Source: Candidatus Nomurabacteria bacterium (lineage in GTDB: Bacteria > Patescibacteriota > Minisyncoccia > Phycocordibacterales > UBA9973). From it: a stretch of DNA of 64,000 nt. Shown piece after piece: positions 779 through 48,733 of the stretch. Position numbers and translations under genes: made by a program. The notes under the pieces are model-generated. The model worked only from the letters and a program-made list of their open reading frames with translations, searched no databases and was not told the origin of the DNA. Positions within the stretch are counted from its first letter, which is position 1. The number at the start of each line of letters is the position of its first letter. Location of the stretch: positions 105,810-169,809 of the forward strand of contig JAPLXP010000003.1 of the NCBI GenBank assembly GCA_026396015.1. Direction: 5' to 3'.

Positions 779-1423
779 ATGAAAAATAAATTATTTGTTT
801 TTGGTTTGGCTTTGGTCCTGAGTGTTTCATTTGTAAATATAGTTTTAGCTACTGATACAGCCGGTGCAGCAGTGGGGGGTTCTGTAGTCTCAGGTACTAC
901 CATGACTCCACCTACACCTCCAGTGATAGATACTACAAATTTTACTGACGCTCAAAAGACAGCACTAGCAAGTGTAAAGACTCTAATGGATCAATCAAAG
1001 GCATTAAGAGAACAAGCTGATAAAGTTTTAAAAGATGCAGGTATTACTCCAAAAATGATGGGTCAGGTAGAAATGAAAGATAAAATGAAGGGTGATAAGG
1101 GTACAGATCAAGAAGATAATCAGGGTGATCATCAGGATGGTGAAAAAGTTTTTGATATGAAAAAGGCTCCAAAACTAGATGGTCAAAAAATGGATGGTAA
1201 CAAAAATCCAGAGAATACAAAAAAGACAGGTGATATAAAAAAGCCTTCTAGTAAGAAAGCTCCAAAGAAAATGGGTGACAAAAAAGAAGGAGACAAGAAG
1301 GGTGGAGAAGGAAAGGGTCCATTCATGGGCGACCGTAAATCACAAGACGGAAAACTTCCTCCAGCAAATAATACACCTGCAGCTCCTGCACAAAATGCAG
1401 CAGCACCAGCAGTGAATCAATAA
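779..1423 (+). CDS. secreted low-complexity Lys/Gly/Asp-rich protein (hypothetical)
   Basis: N-terminal signal/TM (MKNKLFVFGLALVLSVSFVNIVLA). The C-terminal half is KK/GDK/DGQK low-complexity repeats. Confidence 0.5.
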   Translation: MKNKLFVFGLALVLSVSFVNIVLATDTAGAAVGGSVVSGTTMTPPTPPVIDTTNFTDAQKTALASVKTLMDQSKALREQADKVLKDAGITPKMMGQVEMKDKMKGDKGTDQEDNQGDHQDGEKVFDMKKAPKLDGQKMDGNKNPENTKKTGDIKKPSSKKAPKKMGDKKEGDKKGGEGKGPFMGDRKSQDGKLPPANNTPAAPAQNAAAPAVNQ

Positions 1424-1440
1424 TTTAATTTTGAATAAAA

Positions 1441-1470
1441 AAACTCCCATGAGGGAGTTTTTTTTATTCA
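1441..1470. terminator. bidirectional rho-independent terminator (hairpin ctccc-atga-gggag + T tract)
   Basis: aaaaactcccatgagggagtttttttt lies between the converging genes ending at 1423 (+) and 1464 (-). Confidence 0.6.
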
Positions 1471-3632
1471 AAATGCATTGTGATATTTTTTTGTTCGACA
1501 GTATTCAAGAGGATAGGGGATGATAGCAGTTTTGGGTCTTTTTCAATCAGTGCTATTGCCTCATTACGGGCAGCTTCTACCATTTTTATATTCTTGATAG
1601 CTTCCATTCCTAGGTCTGTGATGCCCCATTGTTTACCGCCGCCGAGTTCACCTGCACCACGTAGTGTCAGATCTAGTTCTGCGAGCTCGAAACCGCTCGC
1701 AGCTTTTGTTAGGGCTTTTAGACGGTCCATAGTCTTTTCTGTTTTTGCTTCTGCAAAAAGATAACAGTATGATTGATCGTTTGATCGGATTACTCGTCCA
1801 CGCAGCTGGTGCAGCTGTGCTAAGCCAAATCTTTCTGCTCCCTCGATGATTATCGATGTGGCATTCGGCACATTCACACCTACCTCTATCACTGATGTAG
1901 ATACTAGTATATCTATCTTGTGGTCTTTAAAGTCTTGCATGACTTCCTCCTTTTTTTGCTTTGTCATCTTGCTGTGCATGACTTCTATATTGTATTTTTG
2001 GAAGACTTCTTTTTTGAGGCGCTTTGCTTCTGTCGTCACATTCTTCATAGCTAATGCTTTTTCTTGATCTGGGTCTGGTTCATCAATACGTGGGCAGATG
2101 ACGTATGCTTGATGGCCTGCTTCAAGTTCTCTGTGAATTTTTGTATATGCTTCATCACGCTTACCTGGTGCGACTATTTCTGTGATTACTTTTTTTCTTC
2201 CAGCTGGCATCTCGTCTATGATAGATAGATCTAGGTCTCCGTATATAGTCAGTGCAAGTGTGCGGGGGATAGGAGTCGCCGTCATAGATAGATAATGTGG
2301 AGCATGACCTTCTTTCTTTGCGAGCTTCATTCTTTGATTAGTTCCAAAGCGATGCTGCTCATCGATGATGACCAATCCTAAATCCTCAAATTCTACTGAT
2401 TTGGATACGAGCGCATGAGTACCTACTAGTATTGGTATCTCGCCATTCTTTACCCATTTGAGGAGTTGGGATCGTGATATTGTAGTCCAGGGTTCAGAGG
2501 AACTTGCTACCTTGGTAGGGAACTTTCTACATCCAGATCCAGTAATAAGGCCAATTGATATTCCTGTATGTTTAAAATACTCAATAAAGCTTTCGAATAG
2601 CTGTGTAGCTAGCACTTCGGTCGGTGCCATATATGCCACTTGGATATTTCCAAAGTTTTGTCCGACTGGGCGATTCTTGATCACTGCATATGCTACTGTT
2701 GCAGCAACAAAAGTCTTACCAGACCCTACATCACCTTCGACGAGGCGCGACATTGCCTTGTCTTTTTGAAAGTCTTCAAGTATTGAATTGATTGCATTAC
2801 TCTGTGCATTCGTCGGCTTGAAAGGGAATCGACTGACAAAGTCTGCGATGTCTGCTTTTGGAATTTTCAATTTATATGAGAAAAGTTCTTCGTATTCCTT
2901 ACGCTCCTTTTGGCGTGCCAGCTGTATAAAGAATACTTCTTCAAAAGCGAATCGTTTGCGGGCTGCATCGGCGTCATTCTTTTTCTGAGGTGCGTGTATC
3001 CAGATGAGTGCAGTCTTTAGATTTGGTAGGCTGTATTTTTTAATTATTTCTTCCGGTATGTATTCTCTGATATTTTCCAATGCGCCACTTTTAATAATTT
3101 TCTGTATTGTATGATACATCCATTTTGAAGTGATACCTTTTGTCTCAGGATATATAGGGTAGCCAAAGCTCTGTGTATTTTCCCCACTTGCAAATAGTGA
3201 GTCATGCGTGTCGATAGGTAGGATGTCCTCCTTGGTAATCTCGGGGTTGGTCAGAGTCATACCATATGTCGGACTATTGGATACCTTTCCTGTCACACGC
3301 ACTACCGCTCCTTCGCGTAGCATTTTCGCAAGGTACGGCTGATGGAACCAGACAATCTTTATCTTACCAGTCAGATCTGAAAGTTCTGCGTGGCCCATAG
3401 GAATTTTACTCTTGAAACCTTTTTTAGTTTCGAGTTTGGAAATAGTTCCTAATAGTGTGACTTGCTCACCGTCAGAAATATTATTTATATGTTTTACTTC
3501 TGATATGTCTGTGTATCGTGTAGGGAAGTAGTATAGTAGATCATGAATAGTATTGATACCTAGTCGGACTAGGGCCCCTTTTTGATTGATGTCTATTCTG
3601 AAATTTTTCTCTATTTTGTCCGTCAGATTCAT
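1464..3632 (-). CDS. recG: ATP-dependent DNA helicase RecG
   Basis: 722 aa with Walker A GDVGSGKT and DEAH box DEQHRFG. Wedge/helicase architecture and length are typical of RecG. Confidence 0.85.
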   Translation of the reverse strand: MNLTDKIEKNFRIDINQKGALVRLGINTIHDLLYYFPTRYTDISEVKHINNISDGEQVTLLGTISKLETKKGFKSKIPMGHAELSDLTGKIKIVWFHQPYLAKMLREGAVVRVTGKVSNSPTYGMTLTNPEITKEDILPIDTHDSLFASGENTQSFGYPIYPETKGITSKWMYHTIQKIIKSGALENIREYIPEEIIKKYSLPNLKTALIWIHAPQKKNDADAARKRFAFEEVFFIQLARQKERKEYEELFSYKLKIPKADIADFVSRFPFKPTNAQSNAINSILEDFQKDKAMSRLVEGDVGSGKTFVAATVAYAVIKNRPVGQNFGNIQVAYMAPTEVLATQLFESFIEYFKHTGISIGLITGSGCRKFPTKVASSSEPWTTISRSQLLKWVKNGEIPILVGTHALVSKSVEFEDLGLVIIDEQHRFGTNQRMKLAKKEGHAPHYLSMTATPIPRTLALTIYGDLDLSIIDEMPAGRKKVITEIVAPGKRDEAYTKIHRELEAGHQAYVICPRIDEPDPDQEKALAMKNVTTEAKRLKKEVFQKYNIEVMHSKMTKQKKEEVMQDFKDHKIDILVSTSVIEVGVNVPNATSIIIEGAERFGLAQLHQLRGRVIRSNDQSYCYLFAEAKTEKTMDRLKALTKAASGFELAELDLTLRGAGELGGGKQWGITDLGMEAIKNIKMVEAARNEAIALIEKDPKLLSSPILLNTVEQKNITMHFE

Positions 3633-5832: not shown

Positions 5833-5834
5833 TG

Positions 5835-5921
5835 CGGAGCCGGACGGATTCGAACCGTCGAGGGCTTTTACACCCTGCCTCTTTAGCAAAGAGGTACGTT
5901 AGACCACTCTGACACGGCTCC
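5835..5921 (-). tRNA. tRNA-Ser (anticodon GCU), type II with long variable arm
   Basis: Minus strand GGAGCCG...CCTCT-TTGCTAA-AGAGG...GACGG-TTCGAAT-CCGTC-CGGCTCC-G. It has a 7-bp acceptor stem, canonical T loop and discriminator G. Confidence 0.85.
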
Positions 5922-7786: not shown

Positions 7787-7846
7787 AAAGTTCACAAAAT
7801 ACCACCTTTCTGCTATACTCAGAAAATCATACATGGAGGCGTGGAT

Positions 7847-7970
7847 ATGAAATATGAACTGCTTCATATTTCATCCGTTCGGTCACAATAGACCGACGAG
7901 CGATTATACGAAGTATAAGCTCGAGGGTAGGGTCCGGGAGGACACGAAGACACAACGACGAGTATAACGA
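7847..7970 (+). other. about 125-nt structured intergenic element bounded by a 12-nt direct repeat of the downstream tRNA 5' end (GGAGGCGTGGAT at 7835 and 7971). It contains GC-rich boxes related to the ligA-insert repeat
   Basis: Perfect hairpins tgaaatatgaa-ctgc-ttcatatttca, cggtc-acaata-gaccg and gagcgattatac-gaa-gtataagctc. cggtc...ccgacgagcg and gtccgggaggac resemble the boxes at 29681 and 29704. Confidence 0.4.
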
Positions 7971-8055
7971 GGAGGCGTGGATGAGTGGTTTAAATCAACG
8001 GTTTACTAAACCGTCGTCTGTTACAGGACCGTGAGTTCGAATCTCACCGCCTCCG
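7971..8055 (+). tRNA. type II tRNA with Ser-type identity (long variable arm, discriminator G). The apparent anticodon ACU is unusual
   Basis: Acceptor GGAGGCG/CGCCTCC, T arm GTGAG-TTCGAAT-CTCAC, anticodon stem-loop ACGGT-TTACTAA-ACCGT giving positions 34-36 = ACT. Confidence 0.6.
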
Positions 8056-8094
8056 CAAAATTGTGATAGCACGATATTTGTCATAAATGAACAC

Positions 8095-8844
8095 ATGAAA
8101 ATACTCACTCTCAATACCCAAAAAGCATACCAACCGGATTTTAAAAATTTTATTGTGAATGTTCTAAATAGAGGAGAGTATGATTTCATTTTGCTTCAAG
8201 AGGTCACATCTTCTGTTTCAGACATGATAAAAACAGCTTCTTCGGAGTATCAAATGATCAATCCATTTGATCCTGAACTCGGAGAACATACGCATGGATG
8301 TGTACTTTATAAAAATTTGTTTACTTTGCAAAAAGAACTATTTGTATCTTTTGCCATTCTTGAACCTGGATTTCCTCGCCATGGCTGGGGATTTACGGGA
8401 GGAGTTTTTAATTACGGCGGTAAAAGAATATTTGTTGGCTCAGCACACTTGCATCCAGGATTAAGAAAGAAACGTCGAATGGAACAGCTTAAACTCGTAA
8501 AGGAAAAAGTTATGGCAGAATTTGGTGCGATAACTGTAGTATTTGGTGGTGATTTTAATTTCGGAATGCCGGGAGAAATTTCTTGTTCCGAAAAGATACT
8601 GTCTCCGGAATTTGTGCGAGTCACGAAAGGTCTTGGTCCAACGCTTGATAGTAGATATACCGAGAAAACATCGTGGGGCGTAGCTAGGATAGCGAACATA
8701 CTAGCGAAACTTGGTATTTCTATTAGGCTCAGAGCTGATCATGTATATATCGATAGCCTCACTGTAAAAAGCGCACCTGTGAGATGTCGGATAGTTCCTG
8801 ATCGGGTATCGGATCATTTGGCAGTCGAAGTCTCTATTGGATAA
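8095..8844 (+). CDS. endonuclease/exonuclease/phosphatase (EEP) family protein
   Basis: FILLQEV near the N-terminus, GGDFNF, and the C-terminal SDHLAV motif typical of ExoIII/EEP-fold enzymes. Confidence 0.7.
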   Translation: MKILTLNTQKAYQPDFKNFIVNVLNRGEYDFILLQEVTSSVSDMIKTASSEYQMINPFDPELGEHTHGCVLYKNLFTLQKELFVSFAILEPGFPRHGWGFTGGVFNYGGKRIFVGSAHLHPGLRKKRRMEQLKLVKEKVMAEFGAITVVFGGDFNFGMPGEISCSEKILSPEFVRVTKGLGPTLDSRYTEKTSWGVARIANILAKLGISIRLRADHVYIDSLTVKSAPVRCRIVPDRVSDHLAVEVSIG

Positions 8845-8920
8845 GGTGCTCGAGACGCGTCGATTTTGAATCTGAAAAAATGCTAAAATGACCTTACTGG
8901 TCTTGTCGGGTTTTAGTTCT

Positions 8921-9040
8921 AACACGACGTTCTCCGCAAAAAAGAAAACCCGAAAGGGTTTTTCTTTTTTTGCGGGCGAGAAAGTGATCTGCGTCACTTT
9001 TGTGTGAGATTCGAAGACCTTTTCGTTATGATTAAAGAAT
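8921..9040 (+). other. degenerate copy (C) of the tRNA-3'-end-associated element family (see 33442 and 40116). It includes a 42-nt palindromic terminator-like hairpin
   Basis: ccgcaaaaaagaaaacccgaaagggtttttctttttttgcgg (8934-8975) parallels the hairpin after tRNA-Asp. gaagaccttttcgttatga matches gaagaccttttccttatga at 40181 at 18/19 positions. It is preceded by the tRNA-3'-like remnant ttctccgca. Confidence 0.4.
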
Positions 9041-9121
9041 GCTATTCTTTAATACTCGTCTTGTTTTCAATTATGATTTTTGACTATAGCAGAAAATGGT
9101 CTTTTTTGCTACTATGTTTTT

Positions 9122-9943
9122 ATGGATAATAGTTTTTTAAAAAATATTAAAAACATTGAAATAGACTCAAAACACAGGGAACTTCAGGAAAATGTTGAAT
9201 CTTTTTTAACTCTACCAGATAGAATAGGGGCTACTAATGAAGACAAAAATCTCCCAAAAGATTTAGGTAAATTTCTCGTTGAGAGAGATTTTATAAAAGG
9301 GGTTGATGTGTGGCGCGGGAGTTGGGGTTTTAAGTATAATTCAGAAGATAAAAAAATATCTATTGCTGAAAATGAAATGTCTAAAGAAAATTATGATTAT
9401 TATATTTTTAGATTAGGTTTAGGGAATAACGGTGAATCATTGTTCCCAAAGTATGGAATAGAGACAGATCAATATAGATTCCTCCATGAGGCCGGTCACG
9501 CATATCAAAGTTACCTTGTAAAAAATGAATCATCAGTATTAAATATTGATCCAATGTCTTGGTACAATGAGTCTATAAAAGGAGAAGACAATTCAACATT
9601 TTCTATGCTATTTAATTTGTGCTACAAAATAAGATCAGTAAATGAGAATAGAGGTTTGTCTACATGGGGTAATGTCCCAGATTACAATGCAATAGATGGT
9701 AGTTCGAATAGAATAGCGATGAGAGCGCTAGAAGATGCAAATGAATTAGTGGTCATGAAATTGTGGCATCCTAAATACTTGGAAACTTTTCTTGATTATG
9801 TTTCTCTCAAAATTAATGGATGTAATGAGTCAAATTTAGAGAGTGATAGACTGGTTAAACTTGGAGAAAATACTAAAAGTAATATAAAAGAAATAATTGA
9901 TTTGTATATAGAAGAAATGAAGCATGAAATAAATAAAAAATAA
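9122..9943 (+). CDS. hypothetical protein with HExxH zinc-metallopeptidase-like motif (ORF-track TTG start at 9080; likely ATG at 9122)
   Basis: HEAGHAYQ motif. No other recognisable domain. Confidence 0.4.
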   Translation: MDNSFLKNIKNIEIDSKHRELQENVESFLTLPDRIGATNEDKNLPKDLGKFLVERDFIKGVDVWRGSWGFKYNSEDKKISIAENEMSKENYDYYIFRLGLGNNGESLFPKYGIETDQYRFLHEAGHAYQSYLVKNESSVLNIDPMSWYNESIKGEDNSTFSMLFNLCYKIRSVNENRGLSTWGNVPDYNAIDGSSNRIAMRALEDANELVVMKLWHPKYLETFLDYVSLKINGCNESNLESDRLVKLGENTKSNIKEIIDLYIEEMKHEINKK

Positions 9944-20133: not shown

Positions 20134-20535
20134 ATGAAATTAAATTATAAAAAAGGTTTTACATTGATCGAATTGTTGGTTGTTATCGCAATCATTGGTA
20201 TTCTTGCTTCTGTTGTTATGACATCATTGTCATCTGCAAAGACAAAGGCAAATAGAGCATCAGCTCTATCAAGTGCTGCTGGGGTAATGCCAGCAATCGT
20301 TTCATGTGCAGATAATTCAACAGCTACTGTTAATGCACCAACAAATACTTCAATTGGTGGTGGAAGTATTTGTAGTGATTCTTCTAATGTTAATTCAACA
20401 TGGCCAAGTTTAGGTTCAACAGGATATACATATTCTGTTACAAACTTCACTGCTACAACTGGTTCAACATTTAGTGTTAACTCAGCTACTGGTGCAAATA
20501 TAACTTGTAATTCTATAACTGGCTCTTGTCTATAG
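20134..20535 (+). CDS. type IV pilin, candidate major pilin (prepilin leader MKLNYKKG|FTLIELLVV); ORF-track start 20041 is an upstream in-frame extension
   Basis: Class III signal peptide with G at -1 and E at +5, hydrophobic alpha1, Ser/Thr-rich C-terminal domain. Confidence 0.8.
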   Translation: MKLNYKKGFTLIELLVVIAIIGILASVVMTSLSSAKTKANRASALSSAAGVMPAIVSCADNSTATVNAPTNTSIGGGSICSDSSNVNSTWPSLGSTGYTYSVTNFTATTGSTFSVNSATGANITCNSITGSCL

Positions 20536-20545
20536 TATGTTTTTT

Positions 20546-20578
20546 AAAAAACCACCCATTGGGTGGTTTTTTTGTTTT
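20546..20578. terminator. terminator hairpin ccaccc-att-gggtgg + T tract
   Basis: The same core ccacccaWtgggtgg recurs at 48712. Confidence 0.65.
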
Positions 20579-23974: not shown

Positions 23975-23998
23975 CAAAAACTACCTCTTGGGTGGTTT

Positions 23999-24511
23999 TT
24001 GTTTTTGTATTATAATAAAAAAGGTTTTACATTACTAGAGTTGCTTGTTGTCATTGCGGTTATTGGTATTTTGGCTGCTGTAATAATGGTAAGCGTTTCT
24101 AGTTCTAAAACTAAAGCACAAGTGGCAAATATAAAACAGCAATTTGATAGTATGCGATCACAATCAGATGTATATTATGCAAATAATAATGATTACGGAA
24201 CAGGGTATGCTTATTCTTCTCGTGGGGATAAGTCTGGTACTGGATCTGAAATTTGGGTAAATGATAATTGTGTTACAGATAGTGGTACTGGTATTTTTAG
24301 GCGCTCAACAACTGGTCTTGGTAATCTCATAAACGGTATTTGTAAATCTGGTGCGTCTAGTATTATCGTTGCTGTTGATACTGACCCTGCCACAAAGTGG
24401 GCTATTAAAGTAACTGGTCCGGGTTCAAATTATTTTTGTGAAGATAGCTCTGGTGTTTTGTATTTTCGTACAACTTCTGCTTATAATGTTCTTAATGGCG
24501 TTTGCTCGTAA
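23999..24511 (+). CDS. type IV pilin 2 (prepilin leader ...NKKG|FTLLELLVV); apparent TTG start
   Basis: Class III signal peptide and hydrophobic alpha1, about 150-aa globular domain. Confidence 0.7.
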   Translation: MFLYYNKKGFTLLELLVVIAVIGILAAVIMVSVSSSKTKAQVANIKQQFDSMRSQSDVYYANNNDYGTGYAYSSRGDKSGTGSEIWVNDNCVTDSGTGIFRRSTTGLGNLINGICKSGASSIIVAVDTDPATKWAIKVTGPGSNYFCEDSSGVLYFRTTSAYNVLNGVCS

Positions 24512-25366: not shown

Positions 25367-26704
25367 ATGATGAATCTTAATAATAAACAAAAGAATAGGG
25401 GAATGACTCTCGTTGAATTGATGGTCGTTCTTGCTATCATGTCTATTATTTCTGCTATTGTTGTTACTAATTATTCAGGATATAAATCTAGTAATTCCAT
25501 CAAGATAACTGCAGACGACATAGCTCTCTCTGTTCGACAAGCTCAGGCTTTTGCTATTGGTGTCAGGTCTACCTCTTCTGATGTCTTTCCTGGGTATGGT
25601 ATTCATTTTGATACGTTTGATAGTGGTTCTGTCGTGAATGTTGAAGTTTTACCAGAATGCTCTGATCACAAGGACAATGATGCAGATATGTATTTTGATA
25701 TAGGTGATCCTTCTTGTCATTCAGATTTTGATACATCAAATGCGTCCAGTTATAATCCAGATTTTAATGATGAGTCTCGTAAATCTCAATGTTCTGATGG
25801 ACTTGATAATGATGGAGATGGGTCTGTGGATATTGACGATCCGCAGTGTCATACAGACAGTGACTCTTCTAATTTTGGCTCTTATAATCCATTGTGGGAC
25901 AACGAATCTTCTCGATCTACACTGGGTACTTTTTTGTGCTCAAATGGTATAGACGATGATTCAGATGGACAGATTGATTACAATGATCCTGATTGTCATA
26001 TTGATAAAAATAATCAAAATATAAATAGTTACAACAAGACTATAAATAGTGAAGGTAATTCTACTCTGAATACTGGCTCTGGTGATGCTGGTGGAGGTGG
26101 TGTTGTTGATCCAAATATTGGTCCAGCTGCTTTTTTATTTAATAACTTGAGTAAAAAAATTGCTCAAAATATTTCTAGTGAATTAAATAATTTTTTAAAG
26201 AATACGACTCCTAGTGTTTTTGCTGATGGTGTTCTCGGTAGTATCTCGGGGAATAGTAATTCCTTTATTTTGTTTGCAGATATTCCTTGTGGTATTGGAG
26301 ATCAAAAAGGTAATAATCAGTATGATTATCCAAATACAAGTTCACCCACACCTTGTGGTGGATCTAGTGCCAGTACAGGTTATGTTTGTGATAGTTCATC
26401 TCTTGTCTCAGGGTATGAGTGTCTGAATATTTTCAATACACCTGGTACAGACAAGATCGTCGGCCTCTGTGTAAATGATGAATGCGAGAATTCCATGTTG
26501 GGTAGCAAGGGTACATTGGATATTGTATTCAACAGACCCAATCCAGATGCTAATTTTTGTTTCAGAATTTTAGGGTCTCTTTCTAGTGGTTGCAGTAATA
26601 ATTCTGCCGAGATATCCCATGCTGGTATTATTGTTCAATCAAGTATAGATGAGAGGACAAAAAAGGTGATCATTTATAGCACAGGTCAGATCAGTGTAGA
26701 ATAA
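25367..26704 (+). CDS. large pilin-like protein (prepilin leader NRG|MTLVELMVV) with three tandem Cys-bounded Asp-rich metal-binding repeats; candidate tip/minor pilin adhesin
   Basis: Class III signal. Repeats C.D..DND.DG..D..DP.CH.D.D.SN..SYNP x3 (aa 98-224). Confidence 0.65.
   Translation: MMNLNNKQKNRGMTLVELMVVLAIMSIISAIVVTNYSGYKSSNSIKITADDIALSVRQAQAFAIGVRSTSSDVFPGYGIHFDTFDSGSVVNVEVLPECSDHKDNDADMYFDIGDPSCHSDFDTSNASSYNPDFNDESRKSQCSDGLDNDGDGSVDIDDPQCHTDSDSSNFGSYNPLWDNESSRSTLGTFLCSNGIDDDSDGQIDYNDPDCHIDKNNQNINSYNKTINSEGNSTLNTGSGDAGGGGVVDPNIGPAAFLFNNLSKKIAQNISSELNNFLKNTTPSVFADGVLGSISGNSNSFILFADIPCGIGDQKGNNQYDYPNTSSPTPCGGSSASTGYVCDSSSLVSGYECLNIFNTPGTDKIVGLCVNDECENSMLGSKGTLDIVFNRPNPDANFCFRILGSLSSGCSNNSAEISHAGIIVQSSIDERTKKVIIYSTGQISVE
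25658..26040 (+). repeat. three tandem coding repeats (about 40 codons each) encoding DxDNDxDGxxDxxDPxCH motifs (MopE/thrombospondin-type-3-like Ca/metal-binding)
   Basis: ECSDHKDNDADMYFDIGDPSCHSD / QCSDGLDNDGDGSVDIDDPQCHTD / LCSNGIDDDSDGQIDYNDPDCHID read directly from the translation. Confidence 0.6.
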
Positions 26705-40044: not shown

Positions 40045-40115
40045 TGCTAGATCGTCTAATGGTAGGACAACGGTTTCTGGTACCGTTTATCTAGGTTCGA
40101 GTCCTAGTCTAGCAA
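40045..40115 (+). tRNA. tRNA-Gln (CUG)
   Basis: U1-A72 acceptor TGCTAGA/TCTAGCA as in bacterial tRNA-Gln, anticodon stem-loop ACGGT-TTCTGGT-ACCGT, T arm CTAGG-TTCGAGT-CCTAG. Confidence 0.7.
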
Positions 40116-40276
40116 CAAAAAATAGCGCAGCGGTTTTTGCTGCTAGAAACAAGACAACTGCTTGTCTTGTGGCTAGGACAAGAAGACCTTTTCCTTATGA
40201 GTGTAATCACGAATGGAAAAGTGTGTACTGAATCTGTAAGGTTTGAGAGGTGTAATCACGGTCCTAGTCTAGCAGC
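40116..40276 (+). other. tRNA-Gln-associated structured element (B). Hairpin, tRNA-5'-like TGCTAGA, a 9-bp hairpin, GGCTAGGACAAG, the conserved GAAGACCTTTTCCTTA...GGAAAAGT, then a 14-nt direct repeat of the tRNA-Gln 3' end followed by GCCA
   Basis: gtcctagtctagca at 40261 repeats 40102-40115. The gtgtaatcacg direct repeat appears twice. Motifs are shared with element A. Confidence 0.5.
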
Positions 40277-48705: not shown

Positions 48706-48733
48706 AAAAAACCACCCAATGGGTGGTTTTTAG
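48706..48733. terminator. bidirectional terminator ccaccc-aat-gggtgg
   Basis: Same hairpin core as at 20552. Confidence 0.65.

Follow-up and report, generated by a model that had tools for sequence, protein, structure and literature searches.

A truncated tRNA-trailer element, probably parted from its intact tRNA-Ser(ACU) by a one-gene cassette, in Candidatus Nomurabacteria

The t-elements of plant mitochondria and the species 1 and 2 RNAs of phage T4 are non-tRNA RNAs closed by an acceptor/T-type helix that lie next to or among tRNAs and are excised by RNase P and 3'-end enzymes, and the attC sites of integrons as well as the attP site of the CTX phage, which mimics dif, are folded single-strand recombination sites whose structure is conserved above sequence outside the core. 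The locus presented here belongs to a 64,000-nt stretch of DNA (the window) from a Candidatus Nomurabacteria (Patescibacteria) metagenome-assembled genome (MAG), in which structured trailer elements follow the genes for tRNA-Asp and tRNA-Gln and a third, degenerate copy of the element (copy 3) lies at 8845-9080, between a gene encoding an EEP nuclease and the gene 9122-9943. It is reported that the MALAT1 mascRNA is a tRNA-like module cut out by RNase P and 3'-end enzymes (PMC8457004), that a tRNA-like and a non-tRNA domain are combined in one small RNA in tmRNA and YrlA (PMC4201824), and that integrating elements leave partial tRNA copies, fragments that confuse tRNA annotation (PMC9897764).

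Based on the comparison of the window with related loci and contigs retrieved for this purpose (L003 to L096), the segment 8845-9080 is probably a composite junction of three parts, a cassette end, a trailer remnant and a promoter region, and not a third tRNA locus. Copy 3 itself is likely a truncated element, the cognate tRNA of which stands intact upstream and is parted from it by an inserted one-gene cassette. This view builds on the anatomy of the locus, an element family with covarying helices, empty and occupied sites in other genomes and a break within the element, all of them observed.

An earlier note on this DNA had taken the locus for a degenerate copy of the trailer element, and all the strings quoted in it were found in the window where it had placed them. 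The 18/19 match of a 19-mer to the copy after tRNA-Gln, on which that proposal leaned, held as well, with the partner at 40182-40200 instead of 40181. With up to 3 mismatches allowed, the window contains no match besides the 19-mer and its partner (0.00 expected from shuffles), and an ungapped alignment of 50 nt with 70% identity (8982-9031 vs 40151-40200; repeat family D10) carries the similarity further, with the upstream hairpin in register and its stem changed on both sides in a compensatory manner (GTGA/TCAC vs GACA/TGTC). A covariance model (R1), built from 26 full-length copies that did not include copy 3, matched 8974-9067 with 26.2 bits and E = 1.3e-4. Among the matches of R1 in the window, only the Asp and Gln copies rank higher, and the fourth has E = 0.014. 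Since this score is modest, direct alignment constitutes the decisive evidence: in local alignments, window 8932-9031 shares 94% identity with L080, 93% with L081 and L069, 87% with L040 and 85% with L087, and the identity to intact elements in relatives (85-94% over about 97 nt), where it is 93-94%, reaches 56 nt past a 42-nt palindrome that contains the terminator-like hairpin of the locus. Copy 3 is thus a genuine, degenerate member of the family seen after tRNA-Asp and tRNA-Gln. It could be argued that the spacer contains nothing more than an intrinsic terminator for the EEP gene, any further similarity in this AT-rich DNA being due to chance, as the hairpin 8944-8963 with its T-run has the generic shape of a terminator on both strands and similar terminator hairpins recur in the window (repeat families D3 and D5). 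This explanation is refuted by the 19-mer with its 0.00 expected matches, by the 50-nt in-register match with compensatory changes in helix P2, and by the R1 E-value together with 93-94% identity over 97 nt, and retains next to no probability; the similarity is not confined to the terminator hairpin, and the 19-mer match extends beyond its own limits.

The Asp and Gln copies display the order of parts that characterizes the element: a hairpin between an A-tract and a T-run; a copy of the tRNA acceptor 5' strand (GCGGTCG or TGCTAGA), which is the 5' strand of helix P1; the P2 hairpin, whose loop reads CUGC or CUAC; a strand that complements the 3' part of the tRNA T-loop/T-stem (P3 5' strand); the core GAA(A)G-ACUUUUCC...GGAAAAGU-ACC and, next to it, a hairpin whose loop is GUA; and an exact copy of the last 14-16 nt of the tRNA (19-21 nt are given for complete elements generally). 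Complete elements form a three-way junction, GAAAG-P4-ACC-P5, with GUA in hairpin loops, and an optional hairpin, P6, occurs with stems GCG/CGC, ATG/CAT, ACG/CGT or GTG/CAC around UAMU. Since P1 and P3 use both strands of the tRNA, the element is closed by helices that rebuild the tRNA acceptor/T helix, and the modelled fold is tRNA-like, with P2 in place of the D and anticodon arms and the three-way junction in place of the T loop. The Asp copy has a predicted fold energy of -73.2 kcal/mol (z = -8.0) and scores 99.1 bits with R1; the Gln copy (75.9 bits) represents a subfamily with a GAAGACC junction and the extra hairpin P6. The closing pair of helix P4a covaries across the family (CUUUUCC/GGAAAAG, CUUUUCG/CGAAAAG, CUUUUCU/AGAAAAG and CUUUUCA/UGAAAAG), and therefore the single mismatch in the 19-mer is a legitimate variant: CTTTTCG pairs with CGAAAAG in L052, L053, L060 and others.

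A scan with the core pattern of bacterial and archaeal contigs, one genome per species, returned 33 loci, of which 32 belong to Patescibacteria (Paceibacterota, Nomurabacteria, Adlerbacteria, Saccharibacteria and others) and one, in Gilliamella, matched by chance; nearly all genomic matches lie just 3' of a tRNA on the same strand. In viral contigs, a first pattern scan gave 10 matches, all by chance and in coding DNA, and a later scan for the element returned nothing. In the 514 kb of retrieved loci, R1 detected 108 copies at E <= 1e-3, many of which had not been selected by the search patterns: 77 are located within 130 nt after a tRNA (29 anticodon types), 10 after another element, forming arrays, 19 are orphans and 2 lie at contig ends. 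The spacer between tRNA and element is mostly 30-49 nt, about half of these spacers being terminator-like, and within a conserved Met-Met-Asp-Thr-Thr tRNA cluster the positions of the elements differ between genomes. On the model-fitted alignment, 93.5% of the pair cells are standard, vs 35-52% with slid partners; 36 of the 39 pairs show changes on both sides, with a covariation score of 0.62 vs 0.06-0.10 in the slid controls, and in P2 all 9 pairs change on both sides with 97.6% of the cells paired (105 distinct sequences). The slid controls and an RNAalifold run on a plain MAFFT alignment agree for P2, P4 and P5. In that plain alignment P1 and P3 were not recovered by RNAalifold, owing to register shifts, and they were consequently counted on the model-fitted alignment and with a custom script; by the script, 25 of 35 copies have 8-9 of the 9 P3 positions paired, and P1 is perfect in only about one quarter. 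Among the 105 sequences, G-U pairs outnumber A-C pairs 141 to 69, about 2:1 in favor of the tRNA strand, whereas the first alignment had been ambiguous on this point.

Several observations accompany the family. One MAG carries two copies of a unit composed of tRNA-Lys(UUU), hairpin, element and terminator (L049 5440-5670 and L027 4243-4470); in the L049 copy the 5' half of the tRNA is replaced by unrelated sequence, which shows that the 3' half of a tRNA and its element can be copied together to another locus. Arrays with variant cores were found in L023, L028, L031 and L044 (e.g., GAAGCC-CGATTG...CAATCGGGGTAC). In L095, an exact copy of the last 9 nt of tRNA-Tyr (1418-1502, minus strand) lies 172 nt downstream, followed by a terminator; this locus has no R1 match, so trailers that copy tRNA ends are more diverse than the modelled family. 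All eight tRNA genes of the window lack an encoded CCA, the discriminator being followed by CA in every case read. A 2021 study states that, among the RNase P RNAs examined in the candidate phyla radiation (CPR), about two-thirds lack the CCA-binding UGG motif (PMC8172020), which fits tRNA genes ending in N73-CA and not CCA. The terminal copies of the elements often include this genomic CA, which argues that they were copied from DNA and not from mature tRNA.

In copy 3, hairpin, P1 5' strand, P2, P3 5' strand, junction and P4a 5' strand succeed one another in the order and spacing of the family, and its A-tract, hairpin and T-run come right after a tRNA-type end, ...CCGCA. The hairpin 8944-8963 has 8 pairs and a 4-nt loop and is followed by CTTTTTTT; the terminator scan called it on both strands, and it has the GC-containing stem (minimum 5 bp), the loop (3-8 nt) and the T-run (no more than 2 nt away) of a predicted intrinsic terminator. 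Nearly identical hairpins follow tRNA-Ser in L069, L074, L053, L057, L065, L068 and L085, and a similar one follows tRNA-Asp in the window. The P1 string GCGGGCGAG is also present in the intact elements of L040, L057, L080 and L081, where it pairs 6/7 with CGCCTCC. At the locus itself, searches returned no P4a 3' strand, P5, P6 or terminal tRNA copy: no CTTTTC...GAAAAG pair, no GAAAAG followed by UACC or GUGUAC, and no P5 with a GUA loop. In the window, CTCACCGCCTCCG, the closing T-arm/acceptor copy, has an exact match only inside the tRNA (8043-8055), and the missing 3' half, GAAAAG(U)AC...CTCACCGCCTCC, was not found elsewhere. That the downstream genes represent cargo inserted into P4 was considered and rejected, as no 3' half was found in the window; the 3' half is likewise absent after the homologous downstream gene in L091. 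Since the half-element cannot form P1, P3 or P4, it is most simply a remnant. Its position differs too from that of most copies, no tRNA on the same strand being located within 130 nt upstream; the nearest is tRNA-Ser(ACU), 917 nt before the model match.

This tRNA-Ser(ACU) gene is intact, and the trailer of copy 3 (its hairpin side) starts 878 nt downstream of it. In a second scan, aimed at elements whose P3 fits the T arm of tRNA-Ser, 37 metagenomic loci were retrieved, one of them by chance. In nine loci (L052, L056, L058, L060, L069, L074, L076, L082 and L084) a tRNA-Ser(ACU) identical or nearly identical to that of the window, the hairpin and a complete element directly adjoin, representing the empty site, and tRNA-Ser(UGA) stands directly before hairpin and element in L053, L057, L068 and others. 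The search for an intact tRNA in sister genomes, suggested earlier, was thus positive: tRNA-Ser directly precedes the equivalent hairpin and element (L069, L074, L060, L084 and others). Two of these, L069 and L074, have a hairpin nearly identical to window 8938-8971 and, like the window, a malic-enzyme gene as neighbour (75-77% amino acid identity). In the window, in turn, tRNA-Ser is followed by aaattGTGATAGCACGATAT, by the EEP gene (Pfam PF03372) and by ...TGCTAAAATgaccttactggtcttgtcgggttttaGTTCTAACACGACGTTCTCCGCA, and only then by the hairpin and the half-element. The layout of L055 is the same, with the same two end sequences around an open reading frame (ORF) of 200 aa unrelated to the EEP ORF. 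The left end shared by the window and L055 after tRNA-Ser(ACU), (a/c)a(a/g)t(t/c)GTGATAG(C/T)(A/G)CGATAT, precedes one ORF, and the shared right end, TG(C/T)TAAAAT...GTTCTAA(C/T)ACGACGTTCTCCGC, precedes hairpin and element; from within this right end onward (8884-9031) the two loci are 80% identical. A direct repeat bounds the cassette, CTCCGCAAAA (10 nt) in the window and CTCCGC (6 nt) in L055. An empty site in relatives, together with occupied sites that have conserved ends and unrelated cargo, constitutes the signature of a small mobile cassette.

The right end has a recurrent form, RGTTCYWA, a spacer of 10-20 nt and the acceptor 3' strand of the local tRNA. Several of the 19 orphan elements have their cognate tRNA on the same strand 0.5-1.5 kb upstream, and the right-end form precedes such elements after tRNA-Ser(UGA) in L070, tRNA-Glu in L043, tRNA-Asp in L048 and tRNA-Asn in L033. 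The extended -10 box within the window's right end has counterparts in L055 (TGTTAAAAT) and L040 (TGCTAGAAT). The left-end motif was also observed in other settings: GTGATAG(C/T)(A/G)CGA occurs 5 nt after a CCTCCGC(A/C) end of tRNA-Ser type in four independent contexts (window 8058-8077; L055 1223-1245; L057/L072/L081, just after the element 3' end), with a further case at L050 5473, and may be a cassette left end or a promoter/regulatory box. Synteny through the EEP protein was not informative: its homologs in L003, L004 and L006 (68%, 55% and 56% identity) lie in unrelated contexts with no tRNA or element.

The tRNA-like sequence in the spacer had been read as a decayed T-arm/acceptor half, and hence the element as one that outlived its tRNA. 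In this explanation, a second tRNA-Ser with its own trailer once stood at about 8850-8938 and decayed in place, or else the element moved together with a tRNA 3' fragment. The 24-nt arm at 8915-8938 does match the 3' end of tRNA-Ser(ACU) at 16/24 positions when the alignment is anchored at the CCGCA|AAAA junction (P = 6e-5), and only 6 of the 127,952 24-mers of the window score equally well; moreover, true partial tRNAs precede elements in L049 (tRNA-Lys, 5' half replaced) and L029 (tRNA-Asp 3' half), and 19 of the 108 elements have no adjacent tRNA. Against it, only about 50 nt separate the -10-like box from CCGCA (8934-8938), too few for a tRNA-Ser of about 86 nt, and the strands corresponding to the T-stem are unpaired; at 8845-8940 no tRNA was called by ARAGORN, and Rfam at E <= 10 reported only the tRNA at 7971-8055. 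The 80% identity with L055 includes positions that break T-stem pairing, which fits a conserved end and not independent decay; in both genomes the one-gene insert has an intact cognate tRNA at its opposite end; in sister contigs the tRNA abuts this very hairpin; and the right-end motif is suggested to be the same in cassettes at different tRNAs, since arms of this type were found in L055, L070, L043, L048 and L033. Decay of a tRNA in place is for these reasons an unlikely origin. The sequence is better read as the conserved right end of a cassette, shared with L055 and of the same form at Ser, Glu, Asp and Asn loci, and the element did not outlive its tRNA, which persists 878 nt upstream beyond the EEP cassette.

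On its other side, copy 3 loses homology to the family at 9031/9032: six of seven local alignments stop at 9031 or 9024, and the seventh, with L088, which shares the junction, runs on to 9075. In L088 the downstream gene (84% amino acid identity to the product of 9122-9943, in which no Pfam domain was detected) is preceded by the same GTGTGAGATTCGAAGACCTTTTCGTTATGA, palindrome, promoter and ATG, and upstream of the P3 5' strand by the 3' part of a different, complete element. L088 and the window thus differ exactly at the P3 5' strand, which suggests that recombination between elements reshuffled the upstream side. In L091/L092 (63%), rpmG, tRNA-Trp, hairpin and a half-element (27.8 bits, E = 4.5e-5) precede the homolog, the half-element being cut right after ACUUUUC and joined to TGGTATAAT-7 nt-ATG; in L095 (62%) the gene follows tRNA-Trp after 9 nt with no element, and none was found upstream of the homolog in L089, L093 and L096. 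The presence of the half-element before homologs in L088 and L091/L092 indicates that its junction with this gene family is old and common to the closest relative. The layout of -10 box and ATG is conserved in L088 and similar in L091/L092, and the mRNA of the 9122 gene is probably leaderless, as judged from the sequence. Extended -10 boxes (TGnTAnnnT) 6-7 nt before ATG were observed at window 9107-9124, L091 about 1840-1855 and L095 2488-2503, suggesting leaderless mRNAs; in L095 a -10-like TAAAAT overlaps the last bases of tRNA-Trp.

An AT-rich palindrome begins at the break. Described earlier as a perfect 9-bp inverted repeat with an operator-like role, it is indeed present and perfect, the arms being 10 bp long and spanning 9031-9053. 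The counterpart in L088, ATAAAGAAT-gct-ATTCATTAA, pairs 7/9 with two non-compensatory changes, and the palindrome is absent upstream of the homologous gene in L091/L092, L089, L093 and L095. It lies 70-90 nt upstream of the start codon and 55-75 nt upstream of the -10-like box, and R1 can force it onto P5 with a GCU loop, not GUA. The window is rich in perfect hairpins of 9 bp or more (24 vs 2.3 expected), and hence the palindrome, being one of many, is not a unique signal. Being outside the element homology, without compensation in L088 and remote from the promoter core, it does not sustain the operator-like role. A broader alternative regards the half-element, with or without the palindrome, as a functional upstream module of the downstream gene family, i.e., a promoter-upstream element, a read-through attenuator or an operator. 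Before homologs the half-element, of Ser type in L088 and of Trp type in L091/L092, is cut at the same helix, the inverted repeat of the palindrome is perfect over 10 bp, and a weak promoter-like match (GTGAGA-17-TATGAT) overlaps the half-element. Homologs without an upstream element (L089, L093, L095, L096), the absence of the palindrome in L091/L092 and its uncompensated imperfection in L088, and its distance from a probably leaderless start speak against such a module, and the shared break is equally explained by one ancestral junction followed by inter-element recombination upstream; a regulatory role is accordingly given a low probability, somewhat below that of tRNA decay.

The history that would account for copy 3 can be outlined as follows. 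A cassette with the EEP gene as cargo (8058-8933) would have been inserted exactly at the 3' end of tRNA-Ser(ACU), presumably by site-specific recombination at that end by a recombinase encoded elsewhere. Its right end, 8845-8933, would comprise an outward-facing extended -10-like box and a tRNA-like arm, the last bases of which, CTCCGCA, repeat the tRNA end, and 8934-9031 would be the original trailer of the tRNA, a terminator-like hairpin and the 5' half of an element. At 9031/9032 the broken element would run into the downstream gene's promoter region, an unrelated sequence to which the AT-rich palindrome would belong. Mobility of the cassette would predict an empty site ...CCTCCGCAAAAAAGAAAACCC and an excised circle with the junction ...ACGACGTTCTCCGCAAAATTGTGATAGCACGA... 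In this history copy 3 is presumably an inactive remnant, and its hairpin may now act as the terminator of the EEP gene. Complete elements, in turn, might be RNAs produced by read-through from the tRNA and trimmed by tRNA-processing enzymes, or folded single-stranded DNA.

Various points weigh against parts of this account. The insert holds only the EEP ORF and no integrase, no recombinase was identified, the predicted circle junction was not found in viral contigs, and the repeats bounding the cassettes are short (10 and 6 nt). Insertion here vs deletion in the relatives is not proven by the sequences, the sole argument for insertion being that unrelated cargo lies between conserved ends. The left-end motif GTGATAGYRCGA occurs once out of tRNA context (L050) and may be a promoter or regulatory box. 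A chance core match from 596 Gb (L020) scores 21.7 bits with R1, little below the 26 bits of copy 3; the covariation alignment was fitted to the model structure and leans toward it; and the twofold excess of G-U over A-C pairs does not distinguish RNA from folded DNA. Finally, half-elements were kept before one gene family in two lineages, and the 5' half may be functional and not inert. The features of the locus and the two reference copies are compiled in Table 1.

Table 1. Features of the copy 3 locus and of the intact reference elements in the window
Feature	Position	Strand	Basis or remark
tRNA-Ser(ACU), intact, ends ...CTCACCGCCTCCGCA	7971-8056/8057	+	ARAGORN; Rfam tRNA 57.4 bits
Cassette: left end aaattGTGATAGCACGATAT 8058-8077, EEP ORF 8095-8844, right end 8845-8933	8058-8933	+	
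Extended -10 promoter-like box TGCTAAAAT, faces hairpin/element	8881-8889	+	Read from sequence; putative promoter
tRNA-like 24-mer agttctaacacgacgttctccgca	8915-8938	+	
tRNA-3'-end-like arm AGTTCTAACACGACGTTCTCCGCA	8915-8938	+	Last 10 nt plus flank (CTCCGCAAAA) directly repeat the tRNA end
42-nt palindrome ccgcaaaaaagaaaacccgaaagggtttttctttttttgcgg: acceptor-like CCGC, A-tract, GC hairpin 8944-8963, T-run, GCGG	8934-8975	.	Terminator scan, both strands
P1 5' strand GCGGGCG	8972-8978	+	Degenerate copy of tRNA-Ser acceptor 5' strand GGAGGCG; without 3' partner
P2 hairpin GAAAGTGA-tCTGCg-TCACTTTT, conserved CUGC loop of the family	8980-9001	+	R1 alignment
P3 5' strand GTGAGATTC, complement of tRNA-Ser T-loop/T-stem 3' strand GAATCTCAC	9004-9012	+	Partner strand missing
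Junction GAAGAC, P4a 5' strand CCTTTTCG, TTATGA	9013-9031	+	Last homologous segment
19-mer gaagaccttttcgttatga (= GAAGACCTTTTCGTTATGA)	9013-9031	+	
AT-rich perfect palindrome ATTAAAGAAT-gct-ATTCTTTAAT	9031-9053	.	Starts at break, outside family consensus
Inverted repeat TTAAAGAAT-gct-ATTCTTTAA	9032-9052		
Extended -10-like TGCTACTAT and ATG of downstream gene (9122-9943)	9107-9124	+	Read from sequence
Intact reference copy after tRNA-Asp (33368-33442)	33443-33589	+	Hairpin 33446-33471, element 33472-33589
Intact reference copy after tRNA-Gln (40045-40116)	40117-40275	+	Element 40141-40275

The family is specific to Patescibacteria and apparently undescribed, with no matching Rfam family and no description found in full-text literature searches. 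With Rfam 15, the whole window yielded only tRNAs at the gathering score, and the three element regions, at E <= 10, yielded tRNA plus weak unrelated matches only. A 2026 survey of tRNA genes in Patescibacteria covers group I introns, and the words 'trailer', 'duplicat' and 'pseudogene' do not occur in it; its abstract states that the phylum has no group II introns (PMC13011429). Self-cleaving ribozymes (hammerhead, HDV-like/theta, twister and others) were discarded by reasoning on topology or the lack of conserved cores, together with a computed, silent Rfam search; signal recognition particle (SRP) RNA, 5S RNA, RNase P RNA, retron RNA and box C/D RNA were discarded on the same grounds, of which only the Rfam part was computed.

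Two readings of the complete elements can be considered. In one, the element would be an RNA transcribed by read-through from the tRNA promoter, with an acceptor/T-like helix that would be cut by RNase P and 3'-end enzymes; in the other, it would be a folded single-stranded DNA in which P1 and P3 form a duplex copy of the 3' end of the tRNA gene and which would act as a site of recombination. RNA and DNA are equally compatible with the covarying helices, tandem G.A pairs and GNA loops, given that GNA triloops and G.A pairs are stable in DNA too. As to expression, we lean slightly toward read-through RNA, and as to spread and loss of the elements, slightly toward recombination at repeats; the exact terminal repeats, the arrays, the shifting positions within clusters and the adjacent one-gene cassettes fit a mobile or recombination-prone unit. 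More speculatively, and with doubt outweighing confidence, it can be hypothesized that the elements are tRNA-programmed modules, each with both strands of the last 16-20 bp of the tRNA around a hairpin and a junction, the fold being the working part of mobility or gene capture at tRNA 3' ends with one-gene cassettes as cargo, or else a tRNA-mimic decoy or regulator of its own tRNA.

Additional features were observed around the tRNA genes of the window. The anticodon of tRNA-Ser(ACU) at 7971-8056 carries A34, which is unusual in bacteria outside tRNA-Arg(ACG); the gene recurs in nine related contigs, and a normal tRNA-Ser(GCU) lies 2 kb away (5834-5921). A structured 5' leader with no Rfam match precedes tRNA-Ser in the window (7836-7970), L082 (7046-7180) and L085 (2568-2715). 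This leader begins by repeating 12 nt from the 5' end of its tRNA (GGAGGCGTGGAT), followed by a P2-type hairpin (ATGAAATATGAACTGCTTCATATTTCAT, 7848-7873), continues with two more hairpins and a conserved GAGGGNAGGGTCCGRGAGGACACGAAKMCAC, and its end pairs with the tRNA 5' end in a manner that covaries in L082/L085 (CCACGC/GCGTGG vs CCACACCT/AGGTGTGG); a promoter-like TG-TATACT is located at 7811-7819, ahead of the leader. Another partial tRNA duplication, a degenerate tRNA-Met 5' end (tgtcgatgtagctgttttagttagaaagc), lies at 33188-33217, about 70 nt upstream of the tRNA-Met at 33260. Elsewhere in the window, three ORFs begin with related prepilin-type N-termini (KGFTLIELLVVIAIIGIL-like; 20144-20220, 24012-24088 and 25389-25465), indicating a cluster of type IV pilin-like genes, and the terminator hairpin AAAAACCACCC-ATTG-GGTGGTTTTT recurs nearly identically in intergenic DNA (20547-20571, 48707-48731, 23976-24006 and 1438-1463); this genome seems to reuse or copy its terminators, just as it does the element-borne hairpin.

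Copy 3 alone is a relic of moderate interest, and it is useful as a locus caught between two processes that seem common in very small genomes, namely a structured element tied to tRNAs across Patescibacteria and one-gene cassettes inserted exactly between a tRNA and its trailer. If the family were RNA, it would represent a new class of tRNA mimics with stems copied from the neighbour; if folded DNA, it may point to gene capture at tRNA 3' ends in organisms with poorly known mobile elements. As regards annotation, the tRNA-like fragments and seemingly orphan elements that arise at such loci can easily be mistaken for tRNA genes in decay.

Compared with described systems, the cassette part is a small variant of a known theme, that of integrative elements at tRNA ends, and the trailer element seems to be a novel form of tRNA-like module. 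As at att sites located in the 3' ends of tRNAs, the inserted DNA is flanked by a directly repeated tRNA end and the tRNA stays intact, and nested or tandem insertions occur at the same tRNA as in islands bounded by such sites. Unlike these islands, the insert here comprises one gene and no integrase, the repeat is only 6-10 nt, and the right end is a stereotyped tRNA-like arm and not an exact tRNA fragment; unlike att scars, the trailer elements, of 110-150 nt, add a conserved, covarying fold to the exact repeat. The hairpin 8944-8963 resembles an intrinsic terminator in its GC stem, 4-nt loop, preceding A-tract and following T-run, and can act both ways, whereas the stem is extended, unlike that of a plain terminator, by tRNA-type CCGC pairing with GCGG of the element; since nearly the same hairpin travels with the element after Asp and Ser tRNAs and across genomes, it behaves as part of the unit.

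The complete elements share with t-elements, mascRNA and the T4 species 1 and 2 RNAs an acceptor/T-type closing helix and a location next to tRNAs, and may be processed in a similar way. They differ in that both stems copy the neighbouring tRNA, whatever its identity, a single hairpin takes the place of the D and anticodon arms, and a three-way junction of about 75 nt that of the T loop. With tmRNA and YrlA they share the combination of a tRNA-like domain with another domain; those RNAs are single-copy, with one fixed mimic and a known partner, whereas the family is multi-copy, linked to tRNAs and subject to decay, and no tmRNA or Y-RNA match was obtained in the window with ARAGORN or Rfam. 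In comparison with attC and the attP of CTX, neither an integron integrase nor R/L boxes were seen, conservation of the core sequence is strong and the target is a tRNA 3' end. As in those sites, the folded strand would rebuild the duplex of a chromosomal target, here the last 16 bp of the tRNA gene formed by P1 and P3, and, as with attC, one-gene cassettes and arrays adjoin the elements, a parallel that may serve as a lead only.

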